DNA of 64,000 nt from Candidatus Helarchaeota archaeon (GCA_019058315.1 JAHPZH010000008.1:128001-192000); one strand, 5' to 3'. Counted from the stretch's first letter, positions 8,143 through 50,268 are shown. Made by a program: numbers and translations. Notes: generated from the sequence alone by a model not told the origin.

Positions 8143-9297
8143 TTATTTTCTCCCAATTCCAATATTAGTAATATGTTCCTTCCCATAGAATTCTTGTGAT
8201 GGTGTTTTATGGGTAATGTCTGTATAAATTCCATTTAATACTTCATCTTCAGTTAATCCCCATTCATAAGGCATAACCCTAGTACCTTTTGGGTAAACCC
8301 AATCGAACTCTTCCTTTTTAAACTTCTTCTTATTTTTTAAATCAGGAGGTGTGCAACCTAAAGTTTGTCTTGGAGTAGTCACGCCTCTCTCCTTCCAAGT
8401 TTTAATTAAAAAGTCCCAAAATTCTGGTACCTCTTCTCTAAAAAATTCCTGCATTTTTGGCTCAAACCCGTTAATAAATAATCTGTGAGATGTAAGTAAA
8501 CCTGCTAATTTCATTGTCCATTCGGGGCGTCCCATTGTAGTTAATACATTAAAAATTGGTGGCCAAGGCACGTAACAAAACCAAGGAATTGGACGCCCAT
8601 ATACTTTTTGAGCAACAATTCCATCCCATATACCTGCAAGAGAACTCCAGCTTGATGGTTCTGAAAACAAATTAATTGCTGCTGAAAACCAAACCATACA
8701 CATAGAATAAGCTGAATTTGCCCATTGCGGACTTCTTTCATTCCTAATATCTTTTAAAACGTCTAATATATAAAATCCTGCTTTAGTAAAATTCTTAGTA
8801 TTTTTAGGAATCTCACGAAGTCGCAAACCTCTTTTAATGTGCCTTCGCTCGAATACTTCATCATCGCTATAGAGATACCAATAATCTACAGGAACTCCAT
8901 CCTCCATATGACCATTTATAAGCATCTCTAACTCATAATTTGCATCATTTAAAACAATAAATGTTATATCAGTTGATTCACCATAAATGAGTTTTGTACT
9001 TCCCATTTGTAAATCAGATCTAACATATAAAACTGGAGGAAAAAACCACGTAGTTAATACATTTTCAGGATCTTTTATTTCACCACTCATGACTTTTTTA
9101 GCAGAATCAACTGCGATTTTAAATTTTTCATGCATAAATTCTGAACCACTATTCATGAATTTAACTTCTGGATCAGTTGTTTTTTCAGTCCAATACTCAT
9201 GTCCGAGTTCTTGAAATAATCTCCAAAGATGTTCCCCTAAAGGTATTAATGACTTTGAGGGAAAATCTTCTGGAATATCACCATAAGTGTGTACCAT
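8143..9297 (-). CDS. Uncharacterised 'RNERxPQW' family protein, paralog 1
   Basis: 384 aa; shares FPP..RSDL, GHMEDGVPVDYW, RRH, DIRNERSPQW and YVPWP with four other ORFs in the window. Confidence 0.9.
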   Translation of the reverse strand: MVHTYGDIPEDFPSKSLIPLGEHLWRLFQELGHEYWTEKTTDPEVKFMNSGSEFMHEKFKIAVDSAKKVMSGEIKDPENVLTTWFFPPVLYVRSDLQMGSTKLIYGESTDITFIVLNDANYELEMLINGHMEDGVPVDYWYLYSDDEVFERRHIKRGLRLREIPKNTKNFTKAGFYILDVLKDIRNERSPQWANSAYSMCMVWFSAAINLFSEPSSWSSLAGIWDGIVAQKVYGRPIPWFCYVPWPPIFNVLTTMGRPEWTMKLAGLLTSHRLFINGFEPKMQEFFREEVPEFWDFLIKTWKERGVTTPRQTLGCTPPDLKNKKKFKKEEFDWVYPKGTRVMPYEWGLTEDEVLNGIYTDITHKTPSQEFYGKEHITNIGIGRK

Positions 9298-9379
9298 AAA
9301 TTATCTTCCTCTAATTATTATTTCTGGTTTTATAATTGTTCGATAATTATTTGATTTTTATTTGAAATGGATAGTTCTT

Positions 9380-11347
9380 TTATAACTCACAGTGTTTTTT
9401 ATAATTCTCTTCCAATGATGGAGCATACGGAGGTTGTATATGGTAATCCACTGGTACAGATCTTGATTTTACTTGGTCATCTTCCTTCCAAATTACAATT
9501 AATTTTTTATCGTGTTCCTTATCTTTTTTTGGATAGTCTATTCTTATATGACCTAATCCCCAGTCGGTACCTTTTCTTAAAAGACTTGTATGTATTATTG
9601 TCTCCCCTACAGTAATTACGGTAAAACATTCTAATGCTCTGACCAATTCACGAGGATTTCTTGCATAAACTTGTTGTCCTTCAACATCTTTAATCTCTTT
9701 CAGCCATCGTAATCCCAATTTTAAAATATTTTCATGTTTAAACTCTCCGCAATATTCTTGCATCTTGACAGTAATTCCCATCATGAGCTCTTTCCATCCT
9801 ATTCCTTCTTCTCGATTAATAGGTGCATATACTCTAGCCTTCTCCATTTCAACTTGTTTCCTGTCGATTATTGGATCAGGTGCATTTAGTGCATATTTTA
9901 CAGCTATTCTACCCGCATATCTCCCAGTAGCTGCTGCTTGGCTGTGATCAAGACCACCCCATCCGTTCATTCCAGCTACGTATAGTCCTTCAAGGTTTGT
10001 TTTTAGATCCCAATCAAATAATAGACCACCACTACCTACAGATGGACCCCTGTATTGAGATGGAGGATCTCCCATAAACCAAGCTGGAAAAAGATAATGG
10101 TTAGGAGGATGAACAGGTACTTGAAGCAAGTCTTTTTCGGGATCAAATCCGGCTTCTGTGTAATTCTGATATACAGGTACGCGAGTTTTTCCTTCATTGC
10201 CAACCATGAGACCAAATATTACTCTTCGCTCAAGTTCTGGCATACTGGGTAAATCAGCATATAATGGTAATTTAACTTCACCTTTTTTTATCATGTTTGG
10301 TAAATTTGGTGTAATCATAGGAGCTGAATATTTCCATCTCATTTTATAGGGAAATATAGGCACACCTACAAGAGATAATTTTTGTTTTGATGCATTTAGA
10401 GATCGCTTTTCTACAGGTAAAGTTTTCATACTTCTATCTACCCATGGTATTTCCTTTCCATCAGCGTCTATTACTGTAGTAGGAAACCAAGTCTTTTCAT
10501 GAAAACCAGTTCCAAGGAAAGGAGACATAAATTGACCTGGATTATAAAAAGATCTTTCCATTAATGCTAACTCAGCTCCAGCATTCCAAGCAATAGAAAA
10601 CCCTTCTCCTGTACTATTTGGACAAAGCATAGACCAGCCCATTCCATTCCTATCGGTAGAAAAAACCCAAGGATTTGCAGCTATAGACATGCAAAGGATG
10701 GTGGCTTTTGCCTTGAAGATATAGAATTCCCCAGTTCTAGCATTTACACCTGTTGCACCGACTACTCTTGCTCCTTGCTTACCTCCTTCGGTTAAGAGGC
10801 TAGTAATCATAACTCTTTCATACATTGGGACTTTAAGACGCTTTAATTCATCATAATAATACTTCTTGATTTTAGCCCCTCCACGGACACGAACTATGAA
10901 TTTACTTTCATAATTATAAGCAAATAACATCTTTGATTCTTCATCTCTGAATGGAGCACCCTTGAATTCATCATCTACATCCCTTAAAGGAAGACCCCAT
11001 TTTTCCGCATCAAGTAGGCAATCATAACTTTCTTTACATTGAATGTATCGGGAGATTCCAGGATCAAAAACCGCTTCATCTGCTATAGCATTTGTCAGTT
11101 CTTCAGCTGAAACTTTACAAAATGGTGCAGTACAAGGAAAATTCCAGTGATCGACTCCAGCTCCACCAGAACCACTTGAAATTATAGGACCCTTATCGAC
11201 TAGAATTACCTTACTCCCTTTATTTGCGGCAGATATAGCTGCATAACACCCAGCAACTCCCCCACCTAAAACAAGGACATCTCCGATTACTTCATTTTCT
11301 TCACCATACTTAACAGGATATGGCCATTCTGGCAAATTTTCTTCCAT
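9380..11347 (-). CDS. Flavoprotein of the succinate dehydrogenase/fumarate reductase/AprA superfamily (AprA-like, probably not APS reductase)
   Basis: DVLVLGGGVAGC..A, GATGVNARTGEFYIFKAKATIL, TNLEGLYVAG and a C-terminal helical domain ending R.DYP. Confidence 0.85.
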   Translation of the reverse strand: MEENLPEWPYPVKYGEENEVIGDVLVLGGGVAGCYAAISAANKGSKVILVDKGPIISSGSGGAGVDHWNFPCTAPFCKVSAEELTNAIADEAVFDPGISRYIQCKESYDCLLDAEKWGLPLRDVDDEFKGAPFRDEESKMLFAYNYESKFIVRVRGGAKIKKYYYDELKRLKVPMYERVMITSLLTEGGKQGARVVGATGVNARTGEFYIFKAKATILCMSIAANPWVFSTDRNGMGWSMLCPNSTGEGFSIAWNAGAELALMERSFYNPGQFMSPFLGTGFHEKTWFPTTVIDADGKEIPWVDRSMKTLPVEKRSLNASKQKLSLVGVPIFPYKMRWKYSAPMITPNLPNMIKKGEVKLPLYADLPSMPELERRVIFGLMVGNEGKTRVPVYQNYTEAGFDPEKDLLQVPVHPPNHYLFPAWFMGDPPSQYRGPSVGSGGLLFDWDLKTNLEGLYVAGMNGWGGLDHSQAAATGRYAGRIAVKYALNAPDPIIDRKQVEMEKARVYAPINREEGIGWKELMMGITVKMQEYCGEFKHENILKLGLRWLKEIKDVEGQQVYARNPRELVRALECFTVITVGETIIHTSLLRKGTDWGLGHIRIDYPKKDKEHDKKLIVIWKEDDQVKSRSVPVDYHIQPPYAPSLEENYKKHCEL

Positions 11348-11395
11348 ATTTTTTCACATTCTTCTAATTTTTAATAAAGATTTAATAGAAAATCT

Positions 11396-11734
11396 TCACC
11401 CAATAGGTGGTTTTCGTTTGTATTTTGGTGGGTTTTTCATTCCTACTCGAAAAAATTCTCCCGTATCTTTCCTTATCCAACCCACTTTTTGATTTAATGG
11501 ATGATAAAACTTGATGGCTCCTGGTCGTTGACAATATTGCACACAGTTTCCACAAAACCAGCATTCATCGGGATATAATACAATTGGAGGTTTTCCTTTA
11601 ACTGGATTTGGCATCAAAACATCCCTTCTACACACATCAACACATGTATTACAACCATTACAAATTTCTTGATTAAATTTTACAGGTTGGCATGGCATAG
11701 CGGGATTTGGAACCATATAGGCTTTATATTTCAT
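11396..11734 (-). CDS. AprB-like 2x[4Fe-4S] ferredoxin
   Basis: CNGCNTCVDVC and PDECWFCGNCVQYC, with a C-terminal tail. Immediately upstream of the AprA-like gene. Confidence 0.85.
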   Translation of the reverse strand: MKYKAYMVPNPAMPCQPVKFNQEICNGCNTCVDVCRRDVLMPNPVKGKPPIVLYPDECWFCGNCVQYCQRPGAIKFYHPLNQKVGWIRKDTGEFFRVGMKNPPKYKRKPPIG

Positions 11735-12144
11735 ATAGAAACAACACCGTTAATATTTTATATATAAAAAACGTTCAAGACTTCAGTTATTCAACCATAT
11801 TTATAAAAATTCACTTAAAAAACATAAATTAGCAATATCTATATGATAATTTAGCCATTCAATTATCATACATTAGCAAATTTCAAAAATAATGAGTTAA
11901 AATGGTTGATTATAAAATGAATTGTGAGGATTGGCTAAATTTATGCATAAAATTTTACTTAGATTCTTCTAAAATTCGAAAAAATTAATACAATTCATAT
12001 CTTAAAATCCAATAAAATAGAATTTCGATATATAATTTTTTTCAATAGAAAAGATATTTTATTATTTAATTAAAATGATAGTTTAAATTTGAAATCTTTT
12101 AATTTTAAATGGAGTAAAATTTTTGGTGGAAAGGTGAATCTGTC

Positions 12145-13020
12145 ACGAATATAACAAATATTGATGATTCTGATAGTTTCGATCGTATTGGATGGTTTCA
12201 AATTCAATTATTATTGCAATTAGCATTTAAACCAAAATATGGATATGAAATAATTAATGACTTAAAATTAAATAATATAAATATTTCAACTGGTCAGATT
12301 TATCCCGCATTAAAGAAACTTGTGAATATAAATTACCTAAAAACTTTTTCTAAAAGGGGACGGGCTGCAAAAAGAAAATATTATCAAATAACAGATAAAG
12401 GATTAAATGCCCTTCAAAAAACCATTCGCTCAATTCTTATAAATCTTATACCAGTTATGTATTCTTTTTTAGGAGAGCTTAAAGATAGATTATTTAATAA
12501 ATATAAAATTAATAGGGGAGATGTAATATTCTTATATTCTTATCCAATAAAACAAGCTTTAATAGATTTAGCTCGATTGGTAGGAGACACAGGTAAATTA
12601 TTAATATCTGTCAATAATGATTTAACTCGTCAAACAATCCTGGATCTTGCGGTATTCTATAATTTTGAAAATGTTATCATACCAATTACAGTAAATGATG
12701 ACTTTAAACTTGGTTGTGAAAGGGGAATAGCAGATAAAGCTATATTGATGCTCTTTCAAAGAGAGAAAAAGATTGATTTGCTTTTAAAGGAGACTTTACA
12801 AGTTCTTAAACCAAAGGGGAAATTATTTTCACTTTCAACAAAATTAAATATATTTAGTGAGACCTTCTTAGCCTTTTTCGATTTCTTTGCTCTTCTAGAG
12901 TTCTTCAATGGTTACACAGAACATGAATTAAAAGCTTTATGTGAAAAGTTAGGATTAGATATTGAACAAACAGAAGATATTAAAAAAATAATTATAGTTG
13001 AAGCTAGAAAAAAGGATTAA
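12145..13020 (+). CDS. PadR-family winged-helix regulator fused to a degenerate class I methyltransferase-like domain
   Basis: KPKYGYEII, STGQIYPALKKL, RKYYQITDKG. C-terminal GDVIFL..LARLVGDTGKL..VLKPKGKL. The ORF track starts at TTG 12214, but the frame is open from 12118 and contains PadR helix 1. A start at ACG 12145 after GGTGA is inferred. Confidence 0.8.
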   Translation, partial: TNITNIDDSDSFDRIGWFQIQLLLQLAFKPKYGYEIINDLKLNNINISTGQIYPALKKLVNINYLKTFSKRGRAAKRKYYQITDKGLNALQKTIRSILINLIPVMYSFLGELKDRLFNKYKINRGDVIFLYSYPIKQALIDLARLVGDTGKLLISVNNDLTRQTILDLAVFYNFENVIIPITVNDDFKLGCERGIADKAILMLFQREKKIDLLLKETLQVLKPKGKLFSLSTKLNIFSETFLAFFDFFALLEFFNGYTEHELKALCEKLGLDIEQTEDIKKIIIVEARKKD

Positions 13021-13305
13021 TATTTCTAATTTGATTATTATAAATCTTTTTTGATAATTTAAATACACATTTTTTAATTATTTATAATATTATTACAATC
13101 GTTAGTGGTTTATCTCTATTTATATCATTATTATTTCGAAATTAAAACATTAGAATAATTTATCTATAGTTTGATTGTTATATTGCTAAAATAAGATAAT
13201 TAGATGAAAACATATATTGTATAAGATACAAATTTAATATACGGATATATTATAAATTATTAAAATATTTATTCTTTAAAAATAACAAGTCCTGGAGGGA
13301 CTTGT

Positions 13306-14551: not shown

Positions 14552-15853
14552 TCAAGATTCCTTTTTATATTTGATGACTTTCTTGATTTTCTTAACCTTT
14601 CTTTTTAGTCTCTTCTTTCTTTTTTCATTTTCGATCCAACCTTCGGGTTTGAGATATTTTGTTTTCATCCCATGTCCAATAGAAACTATATTATCTCGTG
14701 TAAGTTTTTCTATTTTCGATTTATGAGTGATATTAAATAATATACCTGATAGTGCTTCATTGAATGAGAGGTCCAAATCTTCATAGAATACGCGAGGTCC
14801 GGGGGGATATTTAAAATCTAAGCTTTCCCATTCGTTAGTATCTGAATTAAATTTAGGAGGTATAGAGTTTAGCGTTTGAGTGGGGGTTGGAATGCCAATT
14901 TTTTTTAATTGATAACTATTAAGTAACAACATTCGGTCAAATTCTTCTGGATATTTTTTCTTTACAAATTCAAGCATATTTTCATTAATAGGCTGTAAAT
15001 ATAGTTGATTTCCACTTAACATTCTTGATAAAGAAACCAGCCAATCTTTTCGGCTTAAAGCAAAGAAAGTGTTAAGCATTGGAGGCCATGGTTCATACAT
15101 AAAGAGAGAGTGTGGAAGTTTATATGCATTTTTAGCATTCACACCATCATAAACTTGTCCTAAGGTATCCCAATTGGAGAATGGTGTGCCTGCTCCTGCC
15201 ATCATAAATACTAGGGAGACTGAATATGAAGAATGAGCCCATTGTGGTGTTCTCTCATTCCTTACATCCATCATAATATCTCTTACTCTGGCAGCAGCTA
15301 ATGCAATATCGGGGAATCTTTTAGGCATTTCTCTTAATTTATAACCCAATTTCAAGTGTCTTCGATTAAAAATTTCCTCATCTCCCGACGCCCACCACCA
15401 TTCTACTGGAAAACCATCCTCCATATGAATATTAAATAACATAAAAAGTTCCCGAGTTATATCATTAATTCCAATAAATGAAATATCATGAGATGGACCA
15501 TAAATCATTACTGAACTGGAAGAATGAAGATCAGCTCTAATGGTCAAATTAGGTGGAAATCCCCAATAAACCATGGTTTCAGCTTTTCTTTTAATTTTTC
15601 CCTCATCTAAAGCTTTTTCTAACTCGAGACCATCCTCCATTCGTTCAGCGAAAAGATTTCCTGATTCATCTGAAATACCTTCTCTTAATAAAAATTCAAA
15701 TTCATCCCATTCTATGAATTGTAGAGTCCAGAGTATGGAAGGTACGAGAGGAGTATATTTTTTAGTGTAGATATGATCTGGAATACTTTTATATGCCTCA
15801 GTAATTGTGCGTTTTGGCTTAAGTTCAGAAATATCTAAAGCTTCTAATATCAA
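14552..15853 (-). CDS. Uncharacterised 'RNERxPQW' family protein, paralog 3 (most divergent, Lys-rich tail)
   Basis: FPPNLTIRADL, IHMEDGFPVEWW, RRH, DVRNERTPQW, YEPWP. Confidence 0.9.
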   Translation of the reverse strand: MILEALDISELKPKRTITEAYKSIPDHIYTKKYTPLVPSILWTLQFIEWDEFEFLLREGISDESGNLFAERMEDGLELEKALDEGKIKRKAETMVYWGFPPNLTIRADLHSSSSVMIYGPSHDISFIGINDITRELFMLFNIHMEDGFPVEWWWASGDEEIFNRRHLKLGYKLREMPKRFPDIALAAARVRDIMMDVRNERTPQWAHSSYSVSLVFMMAGAGTPFSNWDTLGQVYDGVNAKNAYKLPHSLFMYEPWPPMLNTFFALSRKDWLVSLSRMLSGNQLYLQPINENMLEFVKKKYPEEFDRMLLLNSYQLKKIGIPTPTQTLNSIPPKFNSDTNEWESLDFKYPPGPRVFYEDLDLSFNEALSGILFNITHKSKIEKLTRDNIVSIGHGMKTKYLKPEGWIENEKRKKRLKRKVKKIKKVIKYKKES

Positions 15854-23985: not shown

Positions 23986-25083
23986 ATGGAATTGAATGAA
24001 AAAACTCCGAAACCAATAGTTAGAATTAAAGCTATGGATACTGCAAGAGGTATCGCGACTTGGTTATTGATGCCGGCACATTTTTCTCACTGGTATCTAA
24101 AAATTATCCCTAATCCTAGCTGGATGCAATATCTTTTTCGTTCAATTTTAGGTACAGCTTTTCAATATGTCTTTGTTACATTACCTGGAATGGCTGTAAC
24201 ATTGCAGTTATATATTAGTAGAAATAGAGGAATTGATGAAAACCAATTAAAGGTTTCCATAATAAAAAGAGGATTGATATTAATTATCATACAATTTATA
24301 TGTAATTTCTTCTCATATCAACCATTTTTTACTTTTAATTGGTTTATACTATCTTTTATAGGTTTATCGATAATACTTTCTTACTTCTTTACAGGTACTT
24401 CTGAAAAATTAAGGATTATTCTTATTTTAATAATTATAATTTTATCACCAATTTTGAAATTTATTTTCTGGAATTTCTATGTATTAACAGCTTTTCTATC
24501 AAATGCATGGTCTATTGAGATTTTTCTTAATAAAATGTGTTTTGAAGTAAATTTTCCCTTATTTCCATATCTTGCATTACCTATTTTTGGAACTTTATTT
24601 GCAGAAAAAATGATTAAAGCCATAGAAAGTGAGAATCAGATGAAGTTCATAAAAAATTCATTGATTATAGGTGGAATATTAATTATGTTTTATATATTTA
24701 CACTTAATTTTGATTATATTCTAAATTTTCCACATATTGCCTTTTATAGCTTACCTACTCGCCAGGAAGTACTTTATTCCTTTGGAGTAGTTATGGTTGT
24801 TATAGCTTTATTATTTTGGATTCAGGATATTAAGGGAAAGAATTGGAAAATATTTAGACCTTTTGAAATTTATGGGGCTATATCTTTGACTGTATTTGTG
24901 ACACATTTTTATTTATTTCCTCCTCTTTTAGAATTATTGTACGATCCATTACAAAACTTAAGTGAATTTACTGTTTTTCAAATTTGCTCATTTTTTTGGG
25001 CAATATATTGGATCTATGGCGTAATTTGGCGCAGACATCAAAGAAAATATAGTCTAGAATGGGTGCTAAGACGGTTATCATAA
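23986..25083 (+). CDS. HGSNAT/DUF1624-like multi-pass membrane acyltransferase, paralog 1
   Basis: RIKAMDTARGIA...H, KRGL, FPLFPY, GAISLTVFVTH, SLEWVLRRL. Confidence 0.75.
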   Translation: MELNEKTPKPIVRIKAMDTARGIATWLLMPAHFSHWYLKIIPNPSWMQYLFRSILGTAFQYVFVTLPGMAVTLQLYISRNRGIDENQLKVSIIKRGLILIIIQFICNFFSYQPFFTFNWFILSFIGLSIILSYFFTGTSEKLRIILILIIIILSPILKFIFWNFYVLTAFLSNAWSIEIFLNKMCFEVNFPLFPYLALPIFGTLFAEKMIKAIESENQMKFIKNSLIIGGILIMFYIFTLNFDYILNFPHIAFYSLPTRQEVLYSFGVVMVVIALLFWIQDIKGKNWKIFRPFEIYGAISLTVFVTHFYLFPPLLELLYDPLQNLSEFTVFQICSFFWAIYWIYGVIWRRHQRKYSLEWVLRRLS

Positions 25084-25157
25084 GTTAAATTCTAAAAAAA
25101 ATAAATATTAGATAATTTAATTTTAATGGATTCTGATAATAAATTTCAAAGATCTAT

Positions 25158-26315
25158 TTGGTTATTTTCTTGAGTACAAAGGCAAATCAATTTAAAACTG
25201 AAAAAAAAGGAGTTTCCACTAATAGAGTAAAAGCTCTAGATACAGCAAGAGGTTATGCTACAATTATGATGGTAATAGGTCATTATATTCAATGGTACTT
25301 GAAATCTATTATCCCAGCGTCATTTATACAAAACATTTCTTCTCCATCAATTATTCATTATATTTTTGTTCCATTGCTAGGTATTTCAGCGCAAAATCTC
25401 TTTGTAACAATACCGGCCATGGGGGTCATCTTCCAGCGAAATTTGTATAAACAAAGAAATATGGATGAGAATTTATTAAGAAAATCGGTATTGAAAAGAG
25501 GGTTATTGTTAATTTTAGTACAATTTTTTTGTAATGTTATTTTTTCAGATCCTGGATATACTTGGGCTTGGTTTATTCTTTCTTTTATTGGAGTATCAAT
25601 AATAGTTGTGTATTTTATCTCGAAATATTCACCTTACATAAGAATCATAATTGTAATCGCTATTATTATGTTATCTCCATTTCTGAAATATTATTTCTTT
25701 TCGGCGTTTCTTTCATTATTTTTTTATAAAAATGCATGGTCTATTGAAATATTTATTTATAAAATGACTTTACAAGTGGTTTTTCCTATATTTCCTAGTA
25801 TAGTTTATCCGATAATTGGAACAATTTATGCAGAAAAAATAATTGAAGCAAAAGAAAATAATACCCAATTTGAATTAGTTAGAAACTCGTTAATATGTGG
25901 AATTATTCTAATTTCAGCATTTTTCTTATTAGGAAATATTTATGCATTAGTGAATTATCCAGATTTTTGGCTCAATTTGCCATCAAGAGTCGACGTATTA
26001 TATGTTTTTGGAACTAATTTGGTTATCTTATCCATTTTCTATTGGATCCAAGATTGGCAGGAAAAGTCTTTGAAGATTTTTGAGCCATTTAGAGTATTTG
26101 GAGCAATTTCCCTTACTGTATTTATAACACACTTTTATTTATTTCCGATATTTTTTGAACGAATTTTATACAAAGGAGCACGTCAAAGTACAGATTTATA
26201 CACAATTATGCAATTTTCATTAGCATTGATTATTTTATATTATATTTATGGGCTTTATATATTACGAAATGACAGAAAATATAGTGTTGAATGGTTATTA
26301 AGACGTTTTATTTAG
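25158..26315 (+). CDS. HGSNAT/DUF1624-like multi-pass membrane acyltransferase, paralog 2
   Basis: RVKALDTARGYA..MVIGH, KRGL, FPIFP, GAISLTVFITH, SVEWLLRRF. Tandem duplicate of the previous gene. Confidence 0.75.
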   Translation: MVIFLSTKANQFKTEKKGVSTNRVKALDTARGYATIMMVIGHYIQWYLKSIIPASFIQNISSPSIIHYIFVPLLGISAQNLFVTIPAMGVIFQRNLYKQRNMDENLLRKSVLKRGLLLILVQFFCNVIFSDPGYTWAWFILSFIGVSIIVVYFISKYSPYIRIIIVIAIIMLSPFLKYYFFSAFLSLFFYKNAWSIEIFIYKMTLQVVFPIFPSIVYPIIGTIYAEKIIEAKENNTQFELVRNSLICGIILISAFFLLGNIYALVNYPDFWLNLPSRVDVLYVFGTNLVILSIFYWIQDWQEKSLKIFEPFRVFGAISLTVFITHFYLFPIFFERILYKGARQSTDLYTIMQFSLALIILYYIYGLYILRNDRKYSVEWLLRRFI

Positions 26316-36792: not shown

Positions 36793-38115
36793 TTATTTAT
36801 TCATCACTTTATTTGCAATACCGAGCACTTCATCCATAGACAAAGCCATTCTTCTAATTGTATCATAATAATTTTTTACGAATTCTTCCTTTATCTTCGC
36901 TTTTTCCGCTTCACGCTTTTCTTGTAAATCTTTCACTTTTAGAGTAATTTCTCGCAGTTGTTCCTTATTTGGTTCTACACCATGAGGTTTTAATGCTTCT
37001 TCAAGGACCACAGCAGTTCCAGAGAATTTTCCAAATGCAAACTCGCTTTTTCGACCTAATAAATCGTGTGGAATCATTTCATAGATGTGCGGATGAGCAA
37101 GTACACCGTGTGCGTGAATTCCTGATTCATGTCGAAAAGCATTCATTCCCACGATCGGTTTATTGACATGTATTGGTATTCCCGCATATCTGGAAACCAT
37201 TTCACATAATTCCATTAATTTATCGTATTTAATCCGTAATTTTATTCCGTAAATTGTTCTGAGTGCAACAACTATTTCCTCTATTGCGGTGTTTCCGCAC
37301 CGTTCTCCTATACCCAGAACTGTACCTGATATTGCTGCAGCTCCTTCCTCGAGACATGCAAGAGTATTTGCTGTGGCTAATCCATGATCATTGTGAAAAT
37401 GCATTGCCAGAGACATTCCTTCTAATTTATCCTGAACAGTTCGGAAGAACCATTTTGCAGATAGAGGATTAAATACACCAACTGTATCGCTAATACCAGT
37501 TCCTGCCCAACTATTTCCACAAGCTTCTTTGATAGCTTTAACTATTCTTACATAATAGTCTGTATCGGACCTACTAATGTCTTCCATACCGAAAACTATC
37601 ATAAACCCATGATCTAACGCATAATCTAATAATTCTAAGTATTTATTGATGTTGGATTCTAGATCTAATCCCATTTTTTCTCTAATATGAAATTCTGAAC
37701 AACTGGTGAATAAATCTAACATTCTTGCATCACTACGGATTGCGGCATCAATATCATTTTTGTTCGCACGAGCCATAACAAAGCACATAGTCTTTGGAGC
37801 GTTTTCACTAATCATTTTACAAGCCCGTTCTTCTTCCTTAGATACACCAGGATATCCTATCTCACACGCAGCAACTCCAACTTCACCAAGCATTTGAACA
37901 ATATCTACTTTCTGCTCAGGAGTGAAGACTATTCCCACTTGTTGTTCTCCGTCTCTACAAGTGGTATCAGTAATTGTAATACTAGATGAAAACTTATAAT
38001 GTTTTTTAACTTCTTCCACTTCTACTGCGTAATTATGAGCCCAACCTTCTTCATAAGGTTTACGATATTCTTCGGGTAAGAGCTTTAAAAATTTCTCTAA
38101 TTTAATTTTTGGCAT
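36793..38115 (-). CDS. Homocitrate/isopropylmalate synthase-like DRE-TIM metallolyase, paralog A
   Basis: DTTCRDGEQQ, MHFHNDHGLA.AN, GIGERCGN, AFRHESGIHAHG. No LeuA regulatory domain. Confidence 0.9.
   Translation of the reverse strand: MPKIKLEKFLKLLPEEYRKPYEEGWAHNYAVEVEEVKKHYKFSSSITITDTTCRDGEQQVGIVFTPEQKVDIVQMLGEVGVAACEIGYPGVSKEEERACKMISENAPKTMCFVMARANKNDIDAAIRSDARMLDLFTSCSEFHIREKMGLDLESNINKYLELLDYALDHGFMIVFGMEDISRSDTDYYVRIVKAIKEACGNSWAGTGISDTVGVFNPLSAKWFFRTVQDKLEGMSLAMHFHNDHGLATANTLACLEEGAAAISGTVLGIGERCGNTAIEEIVVALRTIYGIKLRIKYDKLMELCEMVSRYAGIPIHVNKPIVGMNAFRHESGIHAHGVLAHPHIYEMIPHDLLGRKSEFAFGKFSGTAVVLEEALKPHGVEPNKEQLREITLKVKDLQEKREAEKAKIKEEFVKNYYDTIRRMALSMDEVLGIANKVMNK
37018..37101 (-). repeat. 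84-bp inverted repeat, copy 1 (partner at 39443-39526)
   Basis: Reverse complement matches 39443-39526 at 83 of 84 positions. Confidence 0.9.
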
Positions 38116-38413
38116 AAAATCTTCCTAATAAATTAATTTTGATTAAGTATATTTGATAATTAGGTTTATAATATTTTACATAATGAAATCAAAGCTAATT
38201 GTCTATTATTAAAAACGGAAAATAAATGGTAAAACGCTAATTGAGTAAAAATTAGATTTTTAAGGTAATTATTAAATGTAAATAAAGGTTTTACCGCACT
38301 AATTCATATTTAAATATATATCTAATATTAGATAATTTTTGAATTAGATAAATTTTTAATAATTCTTTATGTTTTAAATCCTAGATATAAATTAATTGAA
38401 AAAGGGAAAAAAA

Positions 38414-39751
38414 ATGCCAAAATTATCTATGAAGAAATTTTTGAAACTTATGCCAGAAGAATATCGAGCAGCATATGAACAAGGAATGATTCATAATTAT
38501 ACTATAGAAGTTCCAGAAGTTGTGGAACAGTTTAACTTTGCTCCATCAGTTGTTATTAGTGATACAACTTGTCGCGATGGAGAACAGCAACCAGGGGTTA
38601 TTTTTACTCCCGAGCAAAAAGTGGATATTGTCCAAATGCTAGGGGAAATAGGCGTTAGTTTAATAGAAATAGGTTATCCAGGCGTCAGTGAAGATGAAAT
38701 GAAAGCTTGTAAGATGATTTCTGAAAATGCACCAAAAGCTATTTGTTTTGTTATGGCAAGAGCAAACAAGAGAGATATTGACTCAGCTATGAAAGCAGAT
38801 GCAAAAATGTTAGATTTATTTACTTCTTGTTCAGAGTTTCATATACGCGATAAACTTGGGTTGACACCCGAGTCGAACATTGAAATGTACATGGAAATGC
38901 TTGATTATGCTATTGACCATGGTTTCATGATTGTTTTCGGAATGGAGGACATTTCTCGTAGTAGCCTGGATTATTACGCAGATATAATAGTAAAGGCGAG
39001 AGAACGAGCTGGTTCACATTGGGCAGGAACTGGAATTTCCGATACTACTGGGATATTTACCCCGAAATCCGCTGCATGGTTTTATCTCGAAGCAAAGAAA
39101 AAATTAGCTGAGAGAGGGCATCCAGATTTTGCCCTGGGGATGCATTTCCATAATGATCATGGTCTTGCAGTTGCCAATTCACTAGCGTGCTTAGAGGTGG
39201 GAGCTGGAGCGATACAGGGAACAGTTTTAGGTATCGGTGAACGTTGTGGTAACACTCCAATAGAAGAAGTAATGGTAGCGCTTCGTACATTATATGGCAT
39301 TAAGTTAAGAGTAAAATATGACAAAATCCCAGAATTATGTGAAATGGTATCAAAATATTCTGGAATTCCAATCCCCGTTAATAAACCGATAGTGGGAATG
39401 AATGCTTTTCGCCATGAATCAGGCATCCATGCTCATGGAGTCCTTGCTCATCCGCACATCTATGAAATGATTCCACACGATTTGTTAGGTCGAAAAAGCG
39501 AGTTTGCATTTGGAAAATTCTCTGGACAAGCGGTTGTGCTTGAAGAATGTTTAAAACCGCATGGAATTACACCAAATAAGGAACAACTTCTACAAATTAC
39601 GCTAAAAGTAAAAGCTAAGCATGAAGCAAGAGAAAAGGAAAATCAAAAGAAAAAAGTAGAATTTGTAAAACTTTATCAAGACACTATGAGACAATTGGCA
39701 CTCTCGATGGATGAAGTTATTGAAATTGCAAAAGAAGTAATGGGTAAATAA
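38414..39751 (+). CDS. Homocitrate/isopropylmalate synthase-like DRE-TIM metallolyase, paralog B
   Basis: Same motifs as paralog A. ATG 38414 (MPKLSMKKFLKL) aligns with the paralog A start (MPKIKLEKFLKL). Confidence 0.9.
   Translation: MPKLSMKKFLKLMPEEYRAAYEQGMIHNYTIEVPEVVEQFNFAPSVVISDTTCRDGEQQPGVIFTPEQKVDIVQMLGEIGVSLIEIGYPGVSEDEMKACKMISENAPKAICFVMARANKRDIDSAMKADAKMLDLFTSCSEFHIRDKLGLTPESNIEMYMEMLDYAIDHGFMIVFGMEDISRSSLDYYADIIVKARERAGSHWAGTGISDTTGIFTPKSAAWFYLEAKKKLAERGHPDFALGMHFHNDHGLAVANSLACLEVGAGAIQGTVLGIGERCGNTPIEEVMVALRTLYGIKLRVKYDKIPELCEMVSKYSGIPIPVNKPIVGMNAFRHESGIHAHGVLAHPHIYEMIPHDLLGRKSEFAFGKFSGQAVVLEECLKPHGITPNKEQLLQITLKVKAKHEAREKENQKKKVEFVKLYQDTMRQLALSMDEVIEIAKEVMGK
39443..39526 (+). 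repeat. 84-bp inverted repeat, copy 2
   Basis: cttgctcatccgcacatctatgaaatgattccacacgattt[g/a]ttaggtcgaaaaagcgagtttgcatttggaaaattctctgga. Confidence 0.9.
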
Positions 39752-41053: not shown

Positions 41054-41056
41054 TGA

Positions 41057-44544: not shown

Positions 44545-45699
44545 ATGCCTTATGAAGCAGAAAAACTTTCAAAAATTAGACCTTCAGGTATCAGAAAAAT
44601 TTTTGATTTAGCTCAAGGTATGGAAGGCGTAATTAGTCTTGGACTGGGTGCTCCCGATTTTCAAACTCCCCAATATATTAAGGATGCAATGGTTAAGGCA
44701 CTAAAAGACGGATTCACGTCATATTCACCAAATTTAGGATATTTAGAGCTAAGAGAACAAATAGTGAAAAAATATAAAATAGAATATGATTTGGATTACA
44801 GAAATGATGAAATATGTATAACTTGTGGTGCTGCAGAAGCCTTATTAGATGTATTTTTAGCGTTTGTTAATCCTAAAGAAGAGGTTTTAATTCCAGATCC
44901 AGGATTTTTAACATATCCGGCACAAGTCATCTTGGCAGGGGGAATTCCAAAGCCTTATCCGCTATATGAGAAGAATGATTTTAAAGTTGATGCAAATAAT
45001 CTTAATGAATTAATTACGCCTAAAACTAAAATGTTAGTATTAAATTACCCAAGTAATCCAACTGGGGCGGTTATGGATGAAAAAGAACTTAAAAAAATTG
45101 CAGAAATGGCTGAGGATAATAATTTACTAGTATTTTCGGATGAATGTTATGAAAGACTCATTTATGACGGATTAAAACATACATGTTTAGCCTCTTTAGG
45201 CATTCAAGATAGAACTATTGTTGTGAATTCATTCTCCAAAACTTTTGCTATGACGGGATGGAGAATTGGATATATTGTAGCAAAATTAGAATTAATGAAA
45301 TCAATTTTTAAAACACATCAAATGAATACAGCTTGTGCAAACTCTGCTGCACAAATTGCGGTTTTAGAGGGACTCAAATCATCCCAGGATTTCACAACAG
45401 ATATGGTAAAAGAATTCGATAACAGAAGAAAAATTATTGTTAATGGTTTAAATAAAATTCCAGGAATAAAATGTTTTATGCCTAAGGGAGCATTTTATGC
45501 GTTTCCTAATATAGAAGGTACGGGTATGACCTCTACAGAATTTTCTGAATATTTAATTGAGAAAGTGAAAGTAGCAACTGTTCCTGGCAATGAATTTGGT
45601 GAACATGGAGAAGGTTATTTAAGACTTGCATATACAGTTTCTGGGGAAAAATTGTCTGAAGCTCTCGATAGGATTTCGCAAGCACTTTCGGAAAAATAA
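44545..45699 (+). CDS. Aspartate/aromatic aminotransferase class I/II
   Basis: ISLGLGAPDF, NYPSNPTG, SDECYE, NSFSKTFAMTGWRIG, GAFYAFP, GEGYLRL. Confidence 0.93.
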   Translation: MPYEAEKLSKIRPSGIRKIFDLAQGMEGVISLGLGAPDFQTPQYIKDAMVKALKDGFTSYSPNLGYLELREQIVKKYKIEYDLDYRNDEICITCGAAEALLDVFLAFVNPKEEVLIPDPGFLTYPAQVILAGGIPKPYPLYEKNDFKVDANNLNELITPKTKMLVLNYPSNPTGAVMDEKELKKIAEMAEDNNLLVFSDECYERLIYDGLKHTCLASLGIQDRTIVVNSFSKTFAMTGWRIGYIVAKLELMKSIFKTHQMNTACANSAAQIAVLEGLKSSQDFTTDMVKEFDNRRKIIVNGLNKIPGIKCFMPKGAFYAFPNIEGTGMTSTEFSEYLIEKVKVATVPGNEFGEHGEGYLRLAYTVSGEKLSEALDRISQALSEK

Positions 45700-45703
45700 T
45701 TAA

Positions 45704-47071
45704 TTATAGAAAACATTGATGAATAGCATTAATAGTATTTTTTAATTGGGCCTTTGGCACCAATATTGATATATTTAGACCACCACTAGCTTGGCTGATA
45801 GCTAAAACTTCTATTTTTTTTTCACCTAAAGCAGAAAAAACTTTCCCTAATATACCAGGATTACCCAAACCTTCTCCTATAATAGCAATTTCTGCTACTA
45901 TTTCTGATTTAACTTCAAACCATTTTCTAAAAAAATCATCATTTTTTATTATTTTTGTTGCTCTTTCACACTCTTTTTTATCTACAACAAAAGTTGTATT
46001 AACTTCTGAAGAGGATTGTGAGATCAATGTAACATTAATTTTATTTTCTCCCATTAGTCCAAATAATTTAGCAACAGTTCCTGGAACTTCTACTAAGGCT
46101 TCACTTATTGCAGAAATCATAGCTACTTCATCAATGTAAGCAATTCCCTTTACAGTTGACTTTTTATCGCCATATTTAGTAATTTTAGTATAGTTCTCTT
46201 TGGTTAAATCTTTTATATCTCTGATTTCAAGAGGTATTTCCTTGTATTGAATGTGTTGAATACATGAAGGATGTAATACTTTTACACCATAATAAGAGAT
46301 TTCTTTTGCTTCTTCATAGGATAAATTTTCAATTAATGTTGCAGATGGTTCTATTTTTGTATCTGCGGTCATAATACCAGCTATGGTTTCCCAAAAAATT
46401 ATTTTAGTATTATATTTTTCTCCTTGCAAAGCATCGGCAATAATAGTTGCAGTTAGATCATTTCCTCCAGGTCCTAGGGTCGTGATATGCCCTTCTTTAT
46501 TCCTCCCAATAGAACCAGAAATAATTGGAATTGTATTATTTTCTAAGAAAGGTATAATTATTTCTTGAATCTTTTTAGTTGTTACATCCATTATCGGAAG
46601 TCCATCTTCACCTATAACGATGAAATTATTAGCAGAGATATATTCAACGTTACAATCATGATTTAATAGAAAATTTGATAATATATAAGTAGAAAATAAT
46701 TCCCCAAAAGATATTACAAAGTCAATTTTATAGTTTGAAATTCCAAATTCTTCAATATCCTCTAATTTTTCTTTAATCTTCTCTAAATTATCCTGAAGAA
46801 ATTCTTCTAATAAATGAACTTGATATTCAGAAAAAATAGAATGAATAACTTGATTATGTTTATTCTGAATATTCTGTAAAATTGAACTAACATCTTCATG
46901 TCTTTCAGATTTTAATATAGATTCTCCTAATAACTCAGTAATTTCTGGAAGAGCTGGAATTACAAAGATTAATTTTGAATCTTTATATTGATCAATTATT
47001 TCTAACATTTTATTATATACATTAATGTCTCTCAAACAACTTCTTCCAAATCTCATAATAGTTAAATTCAT
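45704..47071 (-). CDS. Aspartate kinase-like protein with two ACT domains (catalytic motifs degenerate)
   Basis: AK fold: SFGELFS, TTLGPGGNDLTA, GIMTAD, LSYEEAKE..GVKVLHP, ISQSSSE. N-terminus reads MRFGRS instead of MKFGGTS. Confidence 0.85.
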   Translation of the reverse strand: MNLTIMRFGRSCLRDINVYNKMLEIIDQYKDSKLIFVIPALPEITELLGESILKSERHEDVSSILQNIQNKHNQVIHSIFSEYQVHLLEEFLQDNLEKIKEKLEDIEEFGISNYKIDFVISFGELFSTYILSNFLLNHDCNVEYISANNFIVIGEDGLPIMDVTTKKIQEIIIPFLENNTIPIISGSIGRNKEGHITTLGPGGNDLTATIIADALQGEKYNTKIIFWETIAGIMTADTKIEPSATLIENLSYEEAKEISYYGVKVLHPSCIQHIQYKEIPLEIRDIKDLTKENYTKITKYGDKKSTVKGIAYIDEVAMISAISEALVEVPGTVAKLFGLMGENKINVTLISQSSSEVNTTFVVDKKECERATKIIKNDDFFRKWFEVKSEIVAEIAIIGEGLGNPGILGKVFSALGEKKIEVLAISQASGGLNISILVPKAQLKNTINAIHQCFL

Positions 47072-47225
47072 TCAATTTTCCTCCATTTCATCAAAACTTA
47101 ATTATTTTACTTTTAAAATATTATAAATTCAATATTTAAAAATTTATAAGGAATTAAACTTGATCGAAGAATGTGCTATAAATAACCAATTAATAATATA
47201 TGTAATCTTAACGAAAAAGGATACT

Positions 47226-47693
47226 TTAGACTCCAACAATTTTAATTGCTTTGCTCAAGCAGTATACTTCACATACGTCACAAGATGTCTTAGGAGGTTT
47301 TACTCTTCTGCATTCATCAAGATTAATTATCTTTAATTTACCATCCACTACTTTATATAATATTTCTTTATCGCTGAGAGGGCCTCCCTCTGCACACTCT
47401 GCACACAATCTTACATTAACAGGACATGCAGTTACGCAATTACCACAACCAGTACAAAGATCAGGATCTAAAGTTACACCAGAAGGATGCACTTTTCCTA
47501 TTTTACTAAAAATTTCCTTTAATTGTTCCCCACCTTTTTTATATTTTGGCTCTTCCAGTAATGGGCACTCGTCAACTTTTCTTTCTTGGTTTAAAAGCTT
47601 TGTAGCAAATGCCATGCATGTCGCTTCACCACATTTTTTACAATTAGTCTTGGGGAGTAACTTATATATTGTAAACGCGCTTAATTTCGTCAT
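47226..47693 (-). CDS. fwdG: FwdG-like ferredoxin with N-terminal FeS domain (Methanosarcina-type formylmethanofuran dehydrogenase subunit G)
   Basis: IYKLLPKTNCKKCGEATCMAFA..CP, then CTGCGNCVTACPVN..GG..V.DG..INLDECRR..C..C..C..AI. Confidence 0.72.
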   Translation of the reverse strand: MTKLSAFTIYKLLPKTNCKKCGEATCMAFATKLLNQERKVDECPLLEEPKYKKGGEQLKEIFSKIGKVHPSGVTLDPDLCTGCGNCVTACPVNVRLCAECAEGGPLSDKEILYKVVDGKLKIINLDECRRVKPPKTSCDVCEVYCLSKAIKIVGV

Positions 47694-47842
47694 TTTTTCT
47701 CCAATAATACAATTGCTTAAATTAATTAAAATAAGTCGGTCAGTTATTGAATTGTATCAAAATAACTAATTAAATAGATGATTAATTCAAATTGGAAAAA
47801 AAATTAAATTATATAATAATTAAGCAAAATTAAGTGTTGGAA

Positions 47843-48994
47843 ATGCCTTTTAGATATGCAGATATTCCAGAATCGAGAACAAAACAGTATTACGCAATAG
47901 GTAGACATATTTGGAAGATGCATAAAGAACTTGGACATGATTATTTAGTTAGGCTACAAGATGAGAGTGTGGAGATGATGTATCCAGAAATTAAAGAACG
48001 GTTAAATATGACGATTCGTTCAGCAAGGGAAATAATCGAAGGAAAACTTTCTCCAGAAAAAACACTAACATACATGTTATTTCCCCCTGTGGTCACTCAA
48101 CGTGGAGATTTAACACAAGGGTCGATGAAATTATTATATGGTGAGTCTTGTGACCTTACGTTTATAGTTATTGATGATAATAAAGAAGGAGAAATATTTT
48201 TTATTTTAAATGGACATGCAGAGGATGGTATTCCTGTCGATTGGTGGTTAGAGAAGCCTGATTCAGAATTACTGGATAGACGACATCAAAAATTAGGTTA
48301 TAAACTCAGAGAAATACCATCGAGAATCAAAAATTTAACTAAATGTGGAATTAGAATAATCGAAATTTTAAAAGATGTTCGCAATGAGCGCACTCCCCAA
48401 TGGAATCTTGCTTCTTATCATATATCCATGGTCTGGGGAACTGGAATGTCTAATCAATTATTCGAACGTTCATCGTGGGATGGTTTTGCCGAACTCTGGG
48501 ATGGAGTTAATGCTAAGCGATTGGGGCTTCCAGATTATTGGTTTTGTTACGTTCCTTGGCCATTAATGGTTAAAACCCTATTTGATATGCCTCGTCGAAG
48601 TTGGACTCTCAGGATAACAGGTCTTTTTCTCGGTCATAAATTTTATATTCAGGGACTTGAAGATATTGCTATCGATTGGATTAAGGAAAATTTTCCAGAG
48701 GTTTTCGAGATTGGGGTAAAACAACAAATTCAAGAAGAGGGCATTCCATTGCCTTGGCAAACTCTAGGTTGTGTTAGCCCTAACTTGAATGATCCTGATG
48801 TATATAAAAATGAAGCCTTTGATTTCAAATATCCAAAACCTGAAAAATTTCTAAAACCTACAGATCTGGATATGAGTTTGGAAGATATACTAAAAGGCGT
48901 TTATCTTGATATTACTCATGAAACCAAAGAAAAAATTTCTAAAGATCACATTATTTCACAGGGGATAGGACGAGAAACAACTTATTTAAAATAA
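47843..48994 (+). CDS. Uncharacterised 'RNERxPQW' family protein, paralog 4
   Basis: FPPVVTQRGDL, GHAEDGIPVDWW, RRH, DVRNERTPQW, YVPWP. ATG 47843 aligns with the other paralog starts. Confidence 0.9.
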   Translation: MPFRYADIPESRTKQYYAIGRHIWKMHKELGHDYLVRLQDESVEMMYPEIKERLNMTIRSAREIIEGKLSPEKTLTYMLFPPVVTQRGDLTQGSMKLLYGESCDLTFIVIDDNKEGEIFFILNGHAEDGIPVDWWLEKPDSELLDRRHQKLGYKLREIPSRIKNLTKCGIRIIEILKDVRNERTPQWNLASYHISMVWGTGMSNQLFERSSWDGFAELWDGVNAKRLGLPDYWFCYVPWPLMVKTLFDMPRRSWTLRITGLFLGHKFYIQGLEDIAIDWIKENFPEVFEIGVKQQIQEEGIPLPWQTLGCVSPNLNDPDVYKNEAFDFKYPKPEKFLKPTDLDMSLEDILKGVYLDITHETKEKISKDHIISQGIGRETTYLK

Positions 48995-49122
48995 AACTTT
49001 ATCATCAAATTCCTTTAAAAACGCTTGATCTTATTAAATCATTTTAATTTTTCTTCAAAATTATAGAATTCAAATCTTATGTCCAAACATTTTAATAATT
49101 TCTTTAATTATTGTTCCTAGCC

Positions 49123-50268
49123 ATGACTCATTATTTTGGAGAAATTCCGGAAAATTTACGGACAAAAATTTTTTATCCATTAGGAAGAAATTTATGGAAA
49201 TTATTTAAAGAGTTCGGATATGAGAGAATCCTTAAATTTCAAGAAAAATCTGAAGAAATTGTATATGAAGAAATTCAAGAACGGTTAAATACTACTTTAA
49301 TTACTGCAAAACGTGTTTTAGAGAAAAAAGTTCCACATCCCGAACAAGTCCTAACATATCTTTTATTTCCTCCAGTTGCTTCAATCCGTACGGATCTCCA
49401 ACAAGGTACTATGAAATTGTTATATGGAGATAGTGTTGATCTCTCATTTATTGTTATGCGGGATGAAACTCAAGATATTTTTTTCATTCTTTCAGGTCAT
49501 TGTGAAGATGGAATACCTGTCGACTGGTGGATGACCAGATCTAATGATGAATTATTGGATAGAAGGCATTCAAAGATCGGATTAAGACTAAATGAGATAC
49601 CAAAACAGAAAAATTTTCTTCAATGCGGTTTAAGATGTTTAGAAATATTAACAGATGTAAGGAATGAAAGAACGCCTCAATGGGCTACTTCAGCATCTCA
49701 TGTCAGCCCAGTATGGACATCAGGATTATGGAATACTTTATTGGAAAGAAGTGGACATGAAGTTCATGCTGCTCTATATGATGGTTGTGTTGCAGATAAA
49801 GCTTTTGGAGAGCCATGGTTTGCCTATATACCTTGGCCCGTAATGATTAAAACTCTATTAATGATGAAGCGAGAGGATTGGGTGTTAAGATTGACTGGTT
49901 TAATGTATAGGCATTATCTCCATTGGCAAGGTTTGGAAGATATAGCAATCAACTGGTTGAAGGAAAATTTTGCAGAAGTTTATTCTTATAGTTTGAAAAT
50001 TTGGGATGAAGGAATTCCATTTCCAATACAGACAATAAATTCAAGTCCCCCAAATTTGAAGGATCCAAAGGTTTGTAGAAGGCAATTATTTGATTGGTAC
50101 TTTCCATTTCCAGAGAATTTTATTCAACCGAGACATATCGGAATGGATATAGAAGAAGTACTTAAAGGTGTTTTTCTGAATATCACCCATGAAACACCTC
50201 ATAATGAAATTATTAACGCTTCGCATATAATTTCAATTGGAACAGGTTTAAATACTAAATTCTTTTGA
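49123..50268 (+). CDS. Uncharacterised 'RNERxPQW' family protein, paralog 5
   Basis: FPPVASIRTDL, GHCEDGIPVDWW, RRH, DVRNERTPQW, YIPWP. Tandem with paralog 4. Confidence 0.9.
   Translation: MTHYFGEIPENLRTKIFYPLGRNLWKLFKEFGYERILKFQEKSEEIVYEEIQERLNTTLITAKRVLEKKVPHPEQVLTYLLFPPVASIRTDLQQGTMKLLYGDSVDLSFIVMRDETQDIFFILSGHCEDGIPVDWWMTRSNDELLDRRHSKIGLRLNEIPKQKNFLQCGLRCLEILTDVRNERTPQWATSASHVSPVWTSGLWNTLLERSGHEVHAALYDGCVADKAFGEPWFAYIPWPVMIKTLLMMKREDWVLRLTGLMYRHYLHWQGLEDIAINWLKENFAEVYSYSLKIWDEGIPFPIQTINSSPPNLKDPKVCRRQLFDWYFPFPENFIQPRHIGMDIEEVLKGVFLNITHETPHNEIINASHIISIGTGLNTKFF

Follow-up and report, generated by a model that had tools for sequence, protein, structure and literature searches.

The window analysed here is a 64,000-nucleotide stretch of the 5.79-Mb genome of a Candidatus Helarchaeota archaeon (GCA_019058315.1; contig C9, positions 128001-192000), which encodes five paralogs of a protein family described in a first-pass annotation as apparently undescribed and five-membered. 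The five open reading frames (paralogs 1 to 5, Table 1) lie where that annotation had placed them and are colinear from end to end, with a pairwise identity of 32-53% and 59 invariant columns in the full-length alignment. All motifs listed in the annotation are invariant in the five proteins, namely FPP..R.DL, YG.S.D..F, H.E.G.PV..W, E...RRH.K.G and D.RNER.PQW, in addition to DG, F.Y.PWP, G...P.QT, G....I.H and G.G. A hidden Markov model (HMM) of the family retrieves each of these copies at E <= 1e-150 and finds exactly five in the window; however, it counts 33 copies in the whole genome. The number five therefore holds for the window only, and the paralog expansion noticed in the annotation is much larger than it had claimed.

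None of the five paralogs possesses a signal peptide, an N-terminal hydrophobic segment or a membrane-type stretch, as had been read from the sequence before. The 19-residue Kyte-Doolittle mean peaks at 1.79, within a helix that is buried in the structure model, and a membrane-protein reading was dropped. The five-paralog alignment has no conserved cysteine and no visible glycine-rich phosphate-binding motif, and no cofactor-binding motif was seen in the family proteins. Three polar residues, H125, E127 and R180 (numbering of paralog 4, P0004), remain invariant across phyla down to ~20% identity; judged by sequence, such invariant His/Glu/Arg residues favour catalysis or specific head-group binding over a plain lipid carrier. 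Paralog 3 belongs to a "long" clade (433-441 residues, kept in other Helarchaeota) with an N-terminal extension and a strongly lysine-rich C-terminal tail of ~25 residues, encoded near position 14552 and absent from the other paralogs.

Searches with the five proteins gave no match in Pfam-A at E <= 1 apart from noise, zero NCBIfam families at E <= 1 and no match in PADLOC. PADLOC and mobile-element signals are lacking, and a defence-system or mobile-element reading was dropped. Profiles of 5 and 77 sequences found nothing among the PDB sequences, and a language-model atlas search yielded uninformative scores of at most 0.82. The profiles of SCP2 (PF02036) and LytR-CpsA-Psr (LCP, PF03816), as well as the Pfam and NCBIfam models of McrC, McrD and the methanogenesis markers, do not match the family protein. 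The public name of every family hit is "hypothetical protein", and literature searches, including those for newer work, turned up no paper on the family. The locus tags SBU_000314 to SBU_000317, which include the family member SBU_000316 of Ca. Syntrophoarchaeum butanivorans, are not mentioned in the main texts of the searchable literature, and SBU_000316 is absent from the accessible part of the supplements of PMC11543930. Within all these sources the family is indeed undescribed, and no confident full-length match to a characterised Pfam or PDB family was found.

The AlphaFold2 model of paralog 4, predicted from a 77-sequence alignment (A2), has a pLDDT of 95.6 and a pTM of 0.92. With this model, Foldseek against the PDB revealed no match at E <= 0.001 (best E 0.012), and the best Z from VIA-align, run on 48,161 chains, was 4.1 (SCP2), which a second pass did not exceed; the ESM Atlas gave template-modelling (TM) scores no higher than 0.35. 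Since unrelated models typically reach Z 7-8 in the calibration of the method, a best Z of 4.1 means that the predicted structure is without a recognisable relative; this holds for the model as a whole and not for its N-terminal (residues 1-40) and C-terminal (residues 275-383) parts as domains of their own. Superposition of the core on the SCP2 fold (118-124 aligned residues within model residues 41-279, root-mean-square deviation (RMSD) 3.9) is the source of this Z of 4.1, which is below the level of unrelated folds. The LCP fold, with Z 3.1-3.7 over ~120-133 residues and Foldseek E 0.012-0.19, is in the noise range, and so are the ASKHA/RNase H-like folds, with Foldseek E 0.025-0.2, TM 0.13-0.16 and Z of at most 2.5.

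Archaeal anaerobic oxidation of alkanes from ethane to hexadecane begins with the alkyl-coenzyme M (alkyl-CoM) reductase (ACR), and the distribution of the family follows this enzyme. A word-indexed search retrieved 119 proteins, all of them strong hits from Helarchaeota-type Asgard metagenome-assembled genomes. When 1.84 billion cluster representatives were searched exhaustively with the HMM, only 130 hits were obtained, and those with a name come only from such genomes (Helarchaeales), Hadarchaeales, Syntropharchaeia, Ca. Alkanophagales and Ca. Methanoliparum (BDC35321.1 of Ca. Methanoliparum sp. LAM-1). These are exactly the lineages known to use ACR; methanogens that lack ACR do not occur among the named hits of this search. 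The weaker full-length hits keep the core (~70-290) together with the H-x-E, RRH and D-x-RNE motifs. The profile search proposed with the first-pass annotation places the family in ACR-bearing archaea, with copy numbers that range from 2 in the butane oxidiser S. butanivorans to 33 in this genome and that may relate to substrate breadth.

The same pattern was found genome by genome. Among 400 Asgard genomes the family occurs in seven, all of the order of the window, and these seven also have McrA (six by PF02249 and G128 by PF02745); the other 393 have neither a family member nor an McrA by PF02249. In Hadarchaeota the family is present in 7 of 66 genomes and McrA in six, all of which are among the family-positive seven, and ~59 ACR-negative genomes are without the family. 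Among 79 Syntropharchaeia nine genomes are family-positive, and none of those whose AcrA shares 50% identity or more with the SBU_000314 type, the stand-alone AcrA encoded near SBU_000316, is missing from these nine. Most Syntropharchaeia have only ~38-40% matches to it, of the type of group 1 anaerobic methanotrophic archaea (ANME-1), and these lack the family. Altogether, the family is present only in McrA/AcrA-bearing genomes, with two exceptions: the genome G544, which has the family and no detected McrA, and the Syntropharchaeia genome G478, considered below.

Gene order revealed the same association. At ~20 loci, spread over several ACR-bearing lineages that are distant from one another, a family gene adjoins acrA, in most cases directly upstream. 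Three acrA genes are present in this genome, and two of its three ACR operons carry a same-strand tandem pair of family genes directly 5'; given 33 copies in 5.8 Mb, we estimate a probability of ~0.003 that two or more of the three operons would have such a neighbour by accident. The first operon (L007) reads family, family, acrB, acrG, acrA, a gene for a 168-residue protein and DUF362. The second (L015, contig C5) reads PadR, four genes (the last two for a 265-residue and an HgdD-like protein), family, family, acrA, an AtwA-like ATP-binding cassette ATPase, a gene for a 165-residue protein, acrB, acrG and ferredoxin. In S. butanivorans the order is family, a 183-residue gene product, AcrA and a 197-residue product; in another Syntropharchaeon a gene for a 117-residue protein precedes the family gene, which is separated from AcrA by a 2-bp gap. 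A third arrangement (G470:C72) has three family copies and two small genes followed by AcrA, and further acrA-adjacent loci are G470:C135, G471:C263, G471:C290, G471:C35, G477:C60 and G479:C12. The family gene lies directly upstream of acrA in G470, G471, G477 and G479, in two or three copies at some loci, and close to it in G402, G403, G540, G541, G542 and G543, of which the Hadarchaeales genomes G540, G541 and G543 share the acrA-neighbour pattern. In Alkanophagales the family gene is on the opposite strand, within 1.5 kb of acrA.

On balance, we lean, if only slightly, towards an accessory role of the family in anaerobic alkane oxidation by the ACR pathway, where it would deal with alkanes or alkyl-CoM. 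The main rival is a maturation or assembly factor that would act on the AcrA polypeptide as a chaperone, in cofactor insertion or in post-translational modification, replacing the McrC/McrD-type helpers that are absent from these ACR operons. To our knowledge, little is known of ACR-specific helper proteins. The gene stands immediately 5' of the stand-alone acrA in Syntropharchaeia, with gaps of 2-40 bp, and 5' of acrBGA or acrA in this genome; the family tracks one AcrA clade, YcaO genes adjoin it in Alkanophagales, and no McrC/McrD Pfam match was found in or near two scanned ACR operons, the family pair itself not being scanned. However, the copies far outnumber acrA (33 versus 3 here, and 6 versus 1 in a 1.3-Mb Hadarchaeon), they form tandem arrays of six modules, many of them lie by AFOR (aldehyde:ferredoxin oxidoreductase), SCP2, acyl-coenzyme A (acyl-CoA) synthetase or flavoenzyme genes and not by ACR, and the partner described below has a predicted lipid-carrier fold. 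A maturation factor is regarded as unlikely.

Two other unannotated families were noticed near acrA or family genes. A protein of 165-198 residues without Pfam or NCBIfam match is encoded just 3' of acrA, directly or one gene later, at L007:13590-14096 and L015:13898-14395 of this genome and at L030:7406-7990, L032:13602-14195 and L049:6919-7515. It is common to Helarchaeales, Hadarchaeales and Syntropharchaeia (BLASTP E 1e-26 to 1e-40) and is a second unannotated ACR-associated family. The other, of 257-265 residues and without Pfam match, occurs six times in the vicinity of family genes, with four of these copies arranged in tandem (L001:8564-12000, at C1:333.5-337k of this genome; L015:4917-5714). 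One copy, followed by the HgdD-like gene (2-hydroxyglutaryl-CoA dehydratase D component), lies just 5' of the family pair in the C5 ACR island.

Paralog 1 is accompanied by a small gene for a 203-residue protein that has no Pfam match. It carries an inserted four-Cys zinc ribbon, its four cysteines being invariant, and its model is of moderate quality (pLDDT 77). Structural similarity search revealed that its ten best PDB matches are all of the SCP2 fold, led by UbiJ-SCP2 (Z 8.5, RMSD 3.2, 117 of 126 residues); the others comprise eight stand-alone SCP2 proteins (Z 5.3-6.9) and the SCP2-like domain of E. coli YjcS (Z 6.5). Foldseek assigned SCP2 with a probability of 1.00 and TM scores by target of 0.63-0.66, with the SCP2-like domains of alkylsulfatases also among its matches. 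In the model the match extends over the whole SCP2 domain, and the 203-residue partner has an SCP2-type lipid-carrier fold. Co-folding of paralog 1 with this protein, which had been suggested earlier, gave a passing score of 0.79, compared to 0.00 for the best control. In calibration, 58 of 80 solved complexes attained this mark, compared to 2 of 110 mismatched pairs; the runs agree on at least 75% of contacts, with a partner pLDDT of 75-78. In the predicted interface the N-terminal helix of the partner lies against residues 95-107 and 247-271 of paralog 1. This interface shows no enrichment of invariant residues, with 8 of the 59 among its 50 residues and 7.7 expected. The prediction supports binding of the partner to paralog 1, and a heteromeric module, as in the earlier suggestion of a hetero-oligomer, is plausible.

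Three loci of this genome, and another genus as well, have a homolog of the 203-residue partner next to a family member, and SCP2 genes flank distant family homologs in Hadarchaeales and Methanoliparum. In Syntropharchaeia, small Cys-rich proteins (117-195 residues) alternate with family genes in tandem arrays; they have no detectable sequence homology with the 203-residue Helarchaeal partner. Because a small Cys-rich protein also pairs with family genes there, a two-protein module seems to be the general unit. The Cys-rich partners of Syntropharchaeia and Alkanophagales are homologous to each other (L026:9645-9998, L028:9542-10000, L032:11132-11683, four in L048 and two in L049), and one contig has a tandem array of six family genes and four such partners. 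The hydrophobic substrates that had been read from the neighbours are likely, given the predicted SCP2 fold of the 203-residue protein, its predicted binding to paralog 1 and the SCP2 genes by homologs.

A carrier-fold partner would also suit a general family of enzymes or carriers for hydrophobic compounds (lipids, isoprenoids or fatty acids) with no direct role in the ACR pathway, which would co-occur with ACR through a hydrocarbon- or lipid-degrading lifestyle or through shared transferred islands. In this genome most copies are not ACR-adjacent, and their neighbours include genes for geranylgeranyl-reductase-like proteins, MaoC dehydratase, major facilitator superfamily transporters and aminotransferases. 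Such a general role is less likely because the family is absent from the 393 other Asgard genomes, although other Asgard genomes also carry candidate enzymes of beta-oxidation (Helarchaeota paper, PMC6478937). It is absent from the ~59 ACR-negative Hadarchaeota as well, and four distant lineages share its placement by acrA on the same strand; altogether, we consider a general lipid role quite improbable.

In the maximum-likelihood tree of the 33 copies of this genome, paralog 1 falls with C3_194k, C5_374k and C3_545k into a clade with 100/100 support, which is the clade of the copies that stand second in the ACR-adjacent pairs, directly 5' of two ACR operons. The sister of paralog 3 is the gene that opens the family pair ahead of the C5 ACR operon, and paralogs 4 and 5 are recent tandem duplicates. 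Paralog 1 lies in a minus-strand operon of redox genes, with the order ferredoxin, SdhA/TfrA/AprA-like flavoprotein, paralog 1, 203-residue protein, FixC-like, FixX-like, GlcD-like, TfrB/HdrD-like CCG and GlcD-like. All NCBIfam scores of the 655-residue flavoprotein are far below cut-off, with partial matches to TfrA, SdhA and AprA. The best score of the CCG protein, also below cut-off, is TfrB, a subunit of the thiol (CoM/coenzyme B (CoB)):fumarate reductase. These scores point to CoM/CoB thiols or the heterodisulfide as possible substrates of the redox enzymes around paralog 1. Since the cluster of flavin adenine dinucleotide (FAD) oxidase, CCG and FixCX genes adjoins a different paralog in another Helarchaeota genome (L034), functional coupling rather than inherited synteny is indicated. 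FAD_binding_4 and CCG genes recur at two further family loci of this genome.

Table 1. Features of the window, with positions counted from its first nucleotide (aa, amino acids)
Feature	Position	Strand	Remark
Redox gene cluster beside paralog 1	1039-7186	-	
GlcD-like FAD oxidase	1039-2637	-	
HdrD/TfrB-like CCG iron-sulfur protein	2647-3906	-	
Second GlcD-like FAD oxidase	3910-5388	-	
FixX-like ferredoxin	5480-5749	-	
FixC/geranylgeranyl-reductase-like flavoprotein	5771-7186	-	
203-aa partner (c5)	7498-8109	-	33 bp 3' of paralog 1
Paralog 1 (P0001), 384 aa	8143-9297	-	Clade of the copies directly 5' of two ACR operons
SdhA/TfrA/AprA-like flavoprotein (655 aa) and 112-aa 2x[4Fe-4S] ferredoxin	9380-11734	-	Directly 5' of paralog 1; flavoprotein at 9380-11347
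PadR-family regulator	12214-13020	+	5' of paralog 2
Paralog 2 (P0002), 396 aa	13306-14496	+	Immediately 3' of PadR regulator gene
Paralog 3 (P0003), 433 aa	14552-15853	-	"Long" clade member
Two tandem HGSNAT-like membrane acyltransferase paralogs	23986-26315		
Two divergent homocitrate/isopropylmalate-synthase-like genes	36793-39751		
Paralog 4 (P0004), 383 aa	47843-48994	+	Protein used for structure model
Paralog 5 (P0005), 381 aa	49123-50268	+	52.7% identical to paralog 4
Aldehyde:ferredoxin oxidoreductase (AFOR)	51835-53670	+	Three genes 3' of paralog 5
ThiF-like gene near HcyBio+CBS homocysteine-biosynthesis gene	54046-56817		

The other window copies also have neighbours that recur elsewhere. 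The PadR gene beside paralog 2 has a counterpart at the start of the ACR island on contig C5; a 17-bp PadR-type palindrome described for that island is matched nowhere in the window. AFOR, found here near paralog 5, is again a neighbour of the family at a further locus of this genome and, outside it, in Methanoliparum and Hadarchaeales. The Methanoliparum locus reads SCP2-like gene (388 residues), family, ferredoxin, AFOR, one gene and acyl-CoA synthetase, and that of Hadarchaeales reads AcrA, a gene for a 194-residue protein, CoA ligase, a gene for a 156-residue protein, family, SCP2 and AFOR. In G471 the family neighbours are HdrD-like, HdrA-like and B12-radical-SAM genes. Comparison of neighbourhoods across genomes, another check put forward with the annotation, thus showed that the family recurs beside acrA, AFOR, SCP2 or redox genes. 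A flavin amine-oxidase-like protein of ~490 residues (NAD_binding_8 and Amino_oxidase) is encoded near three family loci of this genome (L003:2914-4377, L004:1143-2633 and L019:13668-15149). The flavin amine-oxidase superfamily includes the thioether-cleaving prenylcysteine oxidase, and by analogy the ~490-residue protein may be a partner in alkyl-CoM oxidation.

High copy number, tandem arrays and the absence of cofactor motifs would fit a non-enzymatic structural, regulatory or selfish multicopy family without a metabolic role. We regard this as very improbable: PADLOC and mobile-element signals are lacking, the neighbours are metabolic, the polar residues are strictly invariant across phyla and the predicted fold is confidently globular.

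For the accessory role in the ACR pathway, we propose that the family protein and its small partner would act as a two-protein module. The partner would be the SCP2-fold carrier in Helarchaeales and the Cys-rich protein in Syntropharchaeia, with SCP2 genes adjacent in Hadarchaeales and Methanoliparum. The module would bind an amphipathic alkyl compound that ACR makes or uses, either alkyl-S-CoM or the alkane itself, and would offer a hydrophobic groove for the alkyl tail and the invariant His/Glu/Arg/Asp site for the sulfonate head. It would then pass this compound to the nearby oxidoreductases (AFOR, FAD oxidases and HdrD/TfrB-like proteins), or transform it for them, and the many paralogs would confer specificity for chain length or isomer. 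In this scheme we infer the ligand, the pocket, the nature of the protein as carrier or catalyst and the reaction. A more specific version, in which the family protein processes the thioether so that AFOR and acyl-CoA synthetase complete the conversion and the paralog set fixes the usable alkane chain lengths and activation positions, is put forward tentatively, as a possible but rather doubtful extension.

Several points weigh against an accessory role in handling alkanes or alkyl-CoM. The Syntropharchaeia genome G478 has four McrA-like genes, all at most 42% identical to the stand-alone AcrA of S. butanivorans, yet it is without the family and so is the one clear exception to the co-occurrence. 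Because the genomes of a clade share ancestry, the co-occurrence stands for no more than three or four independent events. Of the 33 copies most, including all five of the window, are not ACR-adjacent and stand in heterogeneous neighbourhoods, and the tight link to the stand-alone acrA fits assembly or maturation just as well. The resemblance of the family core to SCP2 and LCP (Z of at most 4.1) carries no weight, and the pocket and its ligand are purely what we infer. Moreover, because the family has neither cofactor motifs nor conserved cysteines, any redox step needs a partner enzyme.

The enzymes that convert alkyl-CoM to acyl-CoA are stated to be unknown in papers published from 2019 to 2024 (among them PMC10322722, PMC11297162, PMC10811742 and PMC11543930 Supplementary Note 2), and the candidates discussed for this conversion are methyltransferases or AFOR only (PMC6478937, PMC10322722, PMC10811742, PMC11297162). 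When alkane- and methane-oxidising archaea were compared by sequence clustering, no candidate was put forward (PMC11543930 Supplementary Note 2). Here, a new, narrowly distributed and highly multiplied family is tied to ACR by phylogenetic profile and gene order. Its neighbours and the predicted binding connect it with lipid carriers, and also with redox enzymes of the AFOR, flavin and HdrD-like kinds. The family is a concrete candidate for the missing steps in the oxidation of alkanes by archaea and is limited to ACR-bearing lineages in Asgard, Hadarchaeota and Halobacteriota, three phyla of which Halobacteriota is represented by Syntropharchaeia and Methanoliparum. Of the first-pass reading, an unknown enzyme, perhaps for lipid or aromatic substrates, the real, unannotated and expanded family and its hydrophobic link stand, and the ACR context had been missed. 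Members exist in cultured consortia (SBU_000316 and BDC35321.1), where they are open to proteomics and purification. For Helarchaeales, in which hydrocarbon use is predicted from genomes alone, a large lineage-specific gene set is added to the predicted pathway.

Several known systems may be compared with the family. The LCP phosphotransferases and DUF4012 are weak best structural neighbours of the family core (~95-265), with Foldseek E 0.01, Z 3.1-3.7 and Atlas TM 0.26-0.35, all in the noise range. LCP proteins bind a polyprenyl tail with an anionic head via conserved Arg and Asp residues; however, they have no sequence relationship to the family and are extracytoplasmic and membrane-anchored, whereas the family is soluble and without signal peptide. 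Like McrC, McrD and the methanogenesis markers, the family is encoded in or next to a reductase operon and confined to reductase-bearing organisms, but it matches none of their models, is absent from the ANME-1-type relatives among Syntropharchaeia and is ACR-lineage-specific and highly multiplied. The MtaA/MtaC-type methyltransferase and tungsten AFOR routes would occupy the same position in the pathway, and AFOR genes adjoin the family in three phyla; yet the family is unrelated to either class and had not been proposed before. The SCP2/UbiJ carriers, such as the UbiJ-SCP2 of the ubiquinone metabolon and the SCP2-like domain of the alkylsulfatases SdsA1 and Pisa1, share their fold with the 203-residue partner, which differs from classical SCP2 in its inserted four-Cys zinc ribbon. 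By sequence the family protein falls outside SCP2 (~385 residues, no Pfam match), with a Z of only 4.1 over part of the core, but the logic is shared, in that a carrier presents a hydrophobic tail with a charged head to a soluble enzyme.

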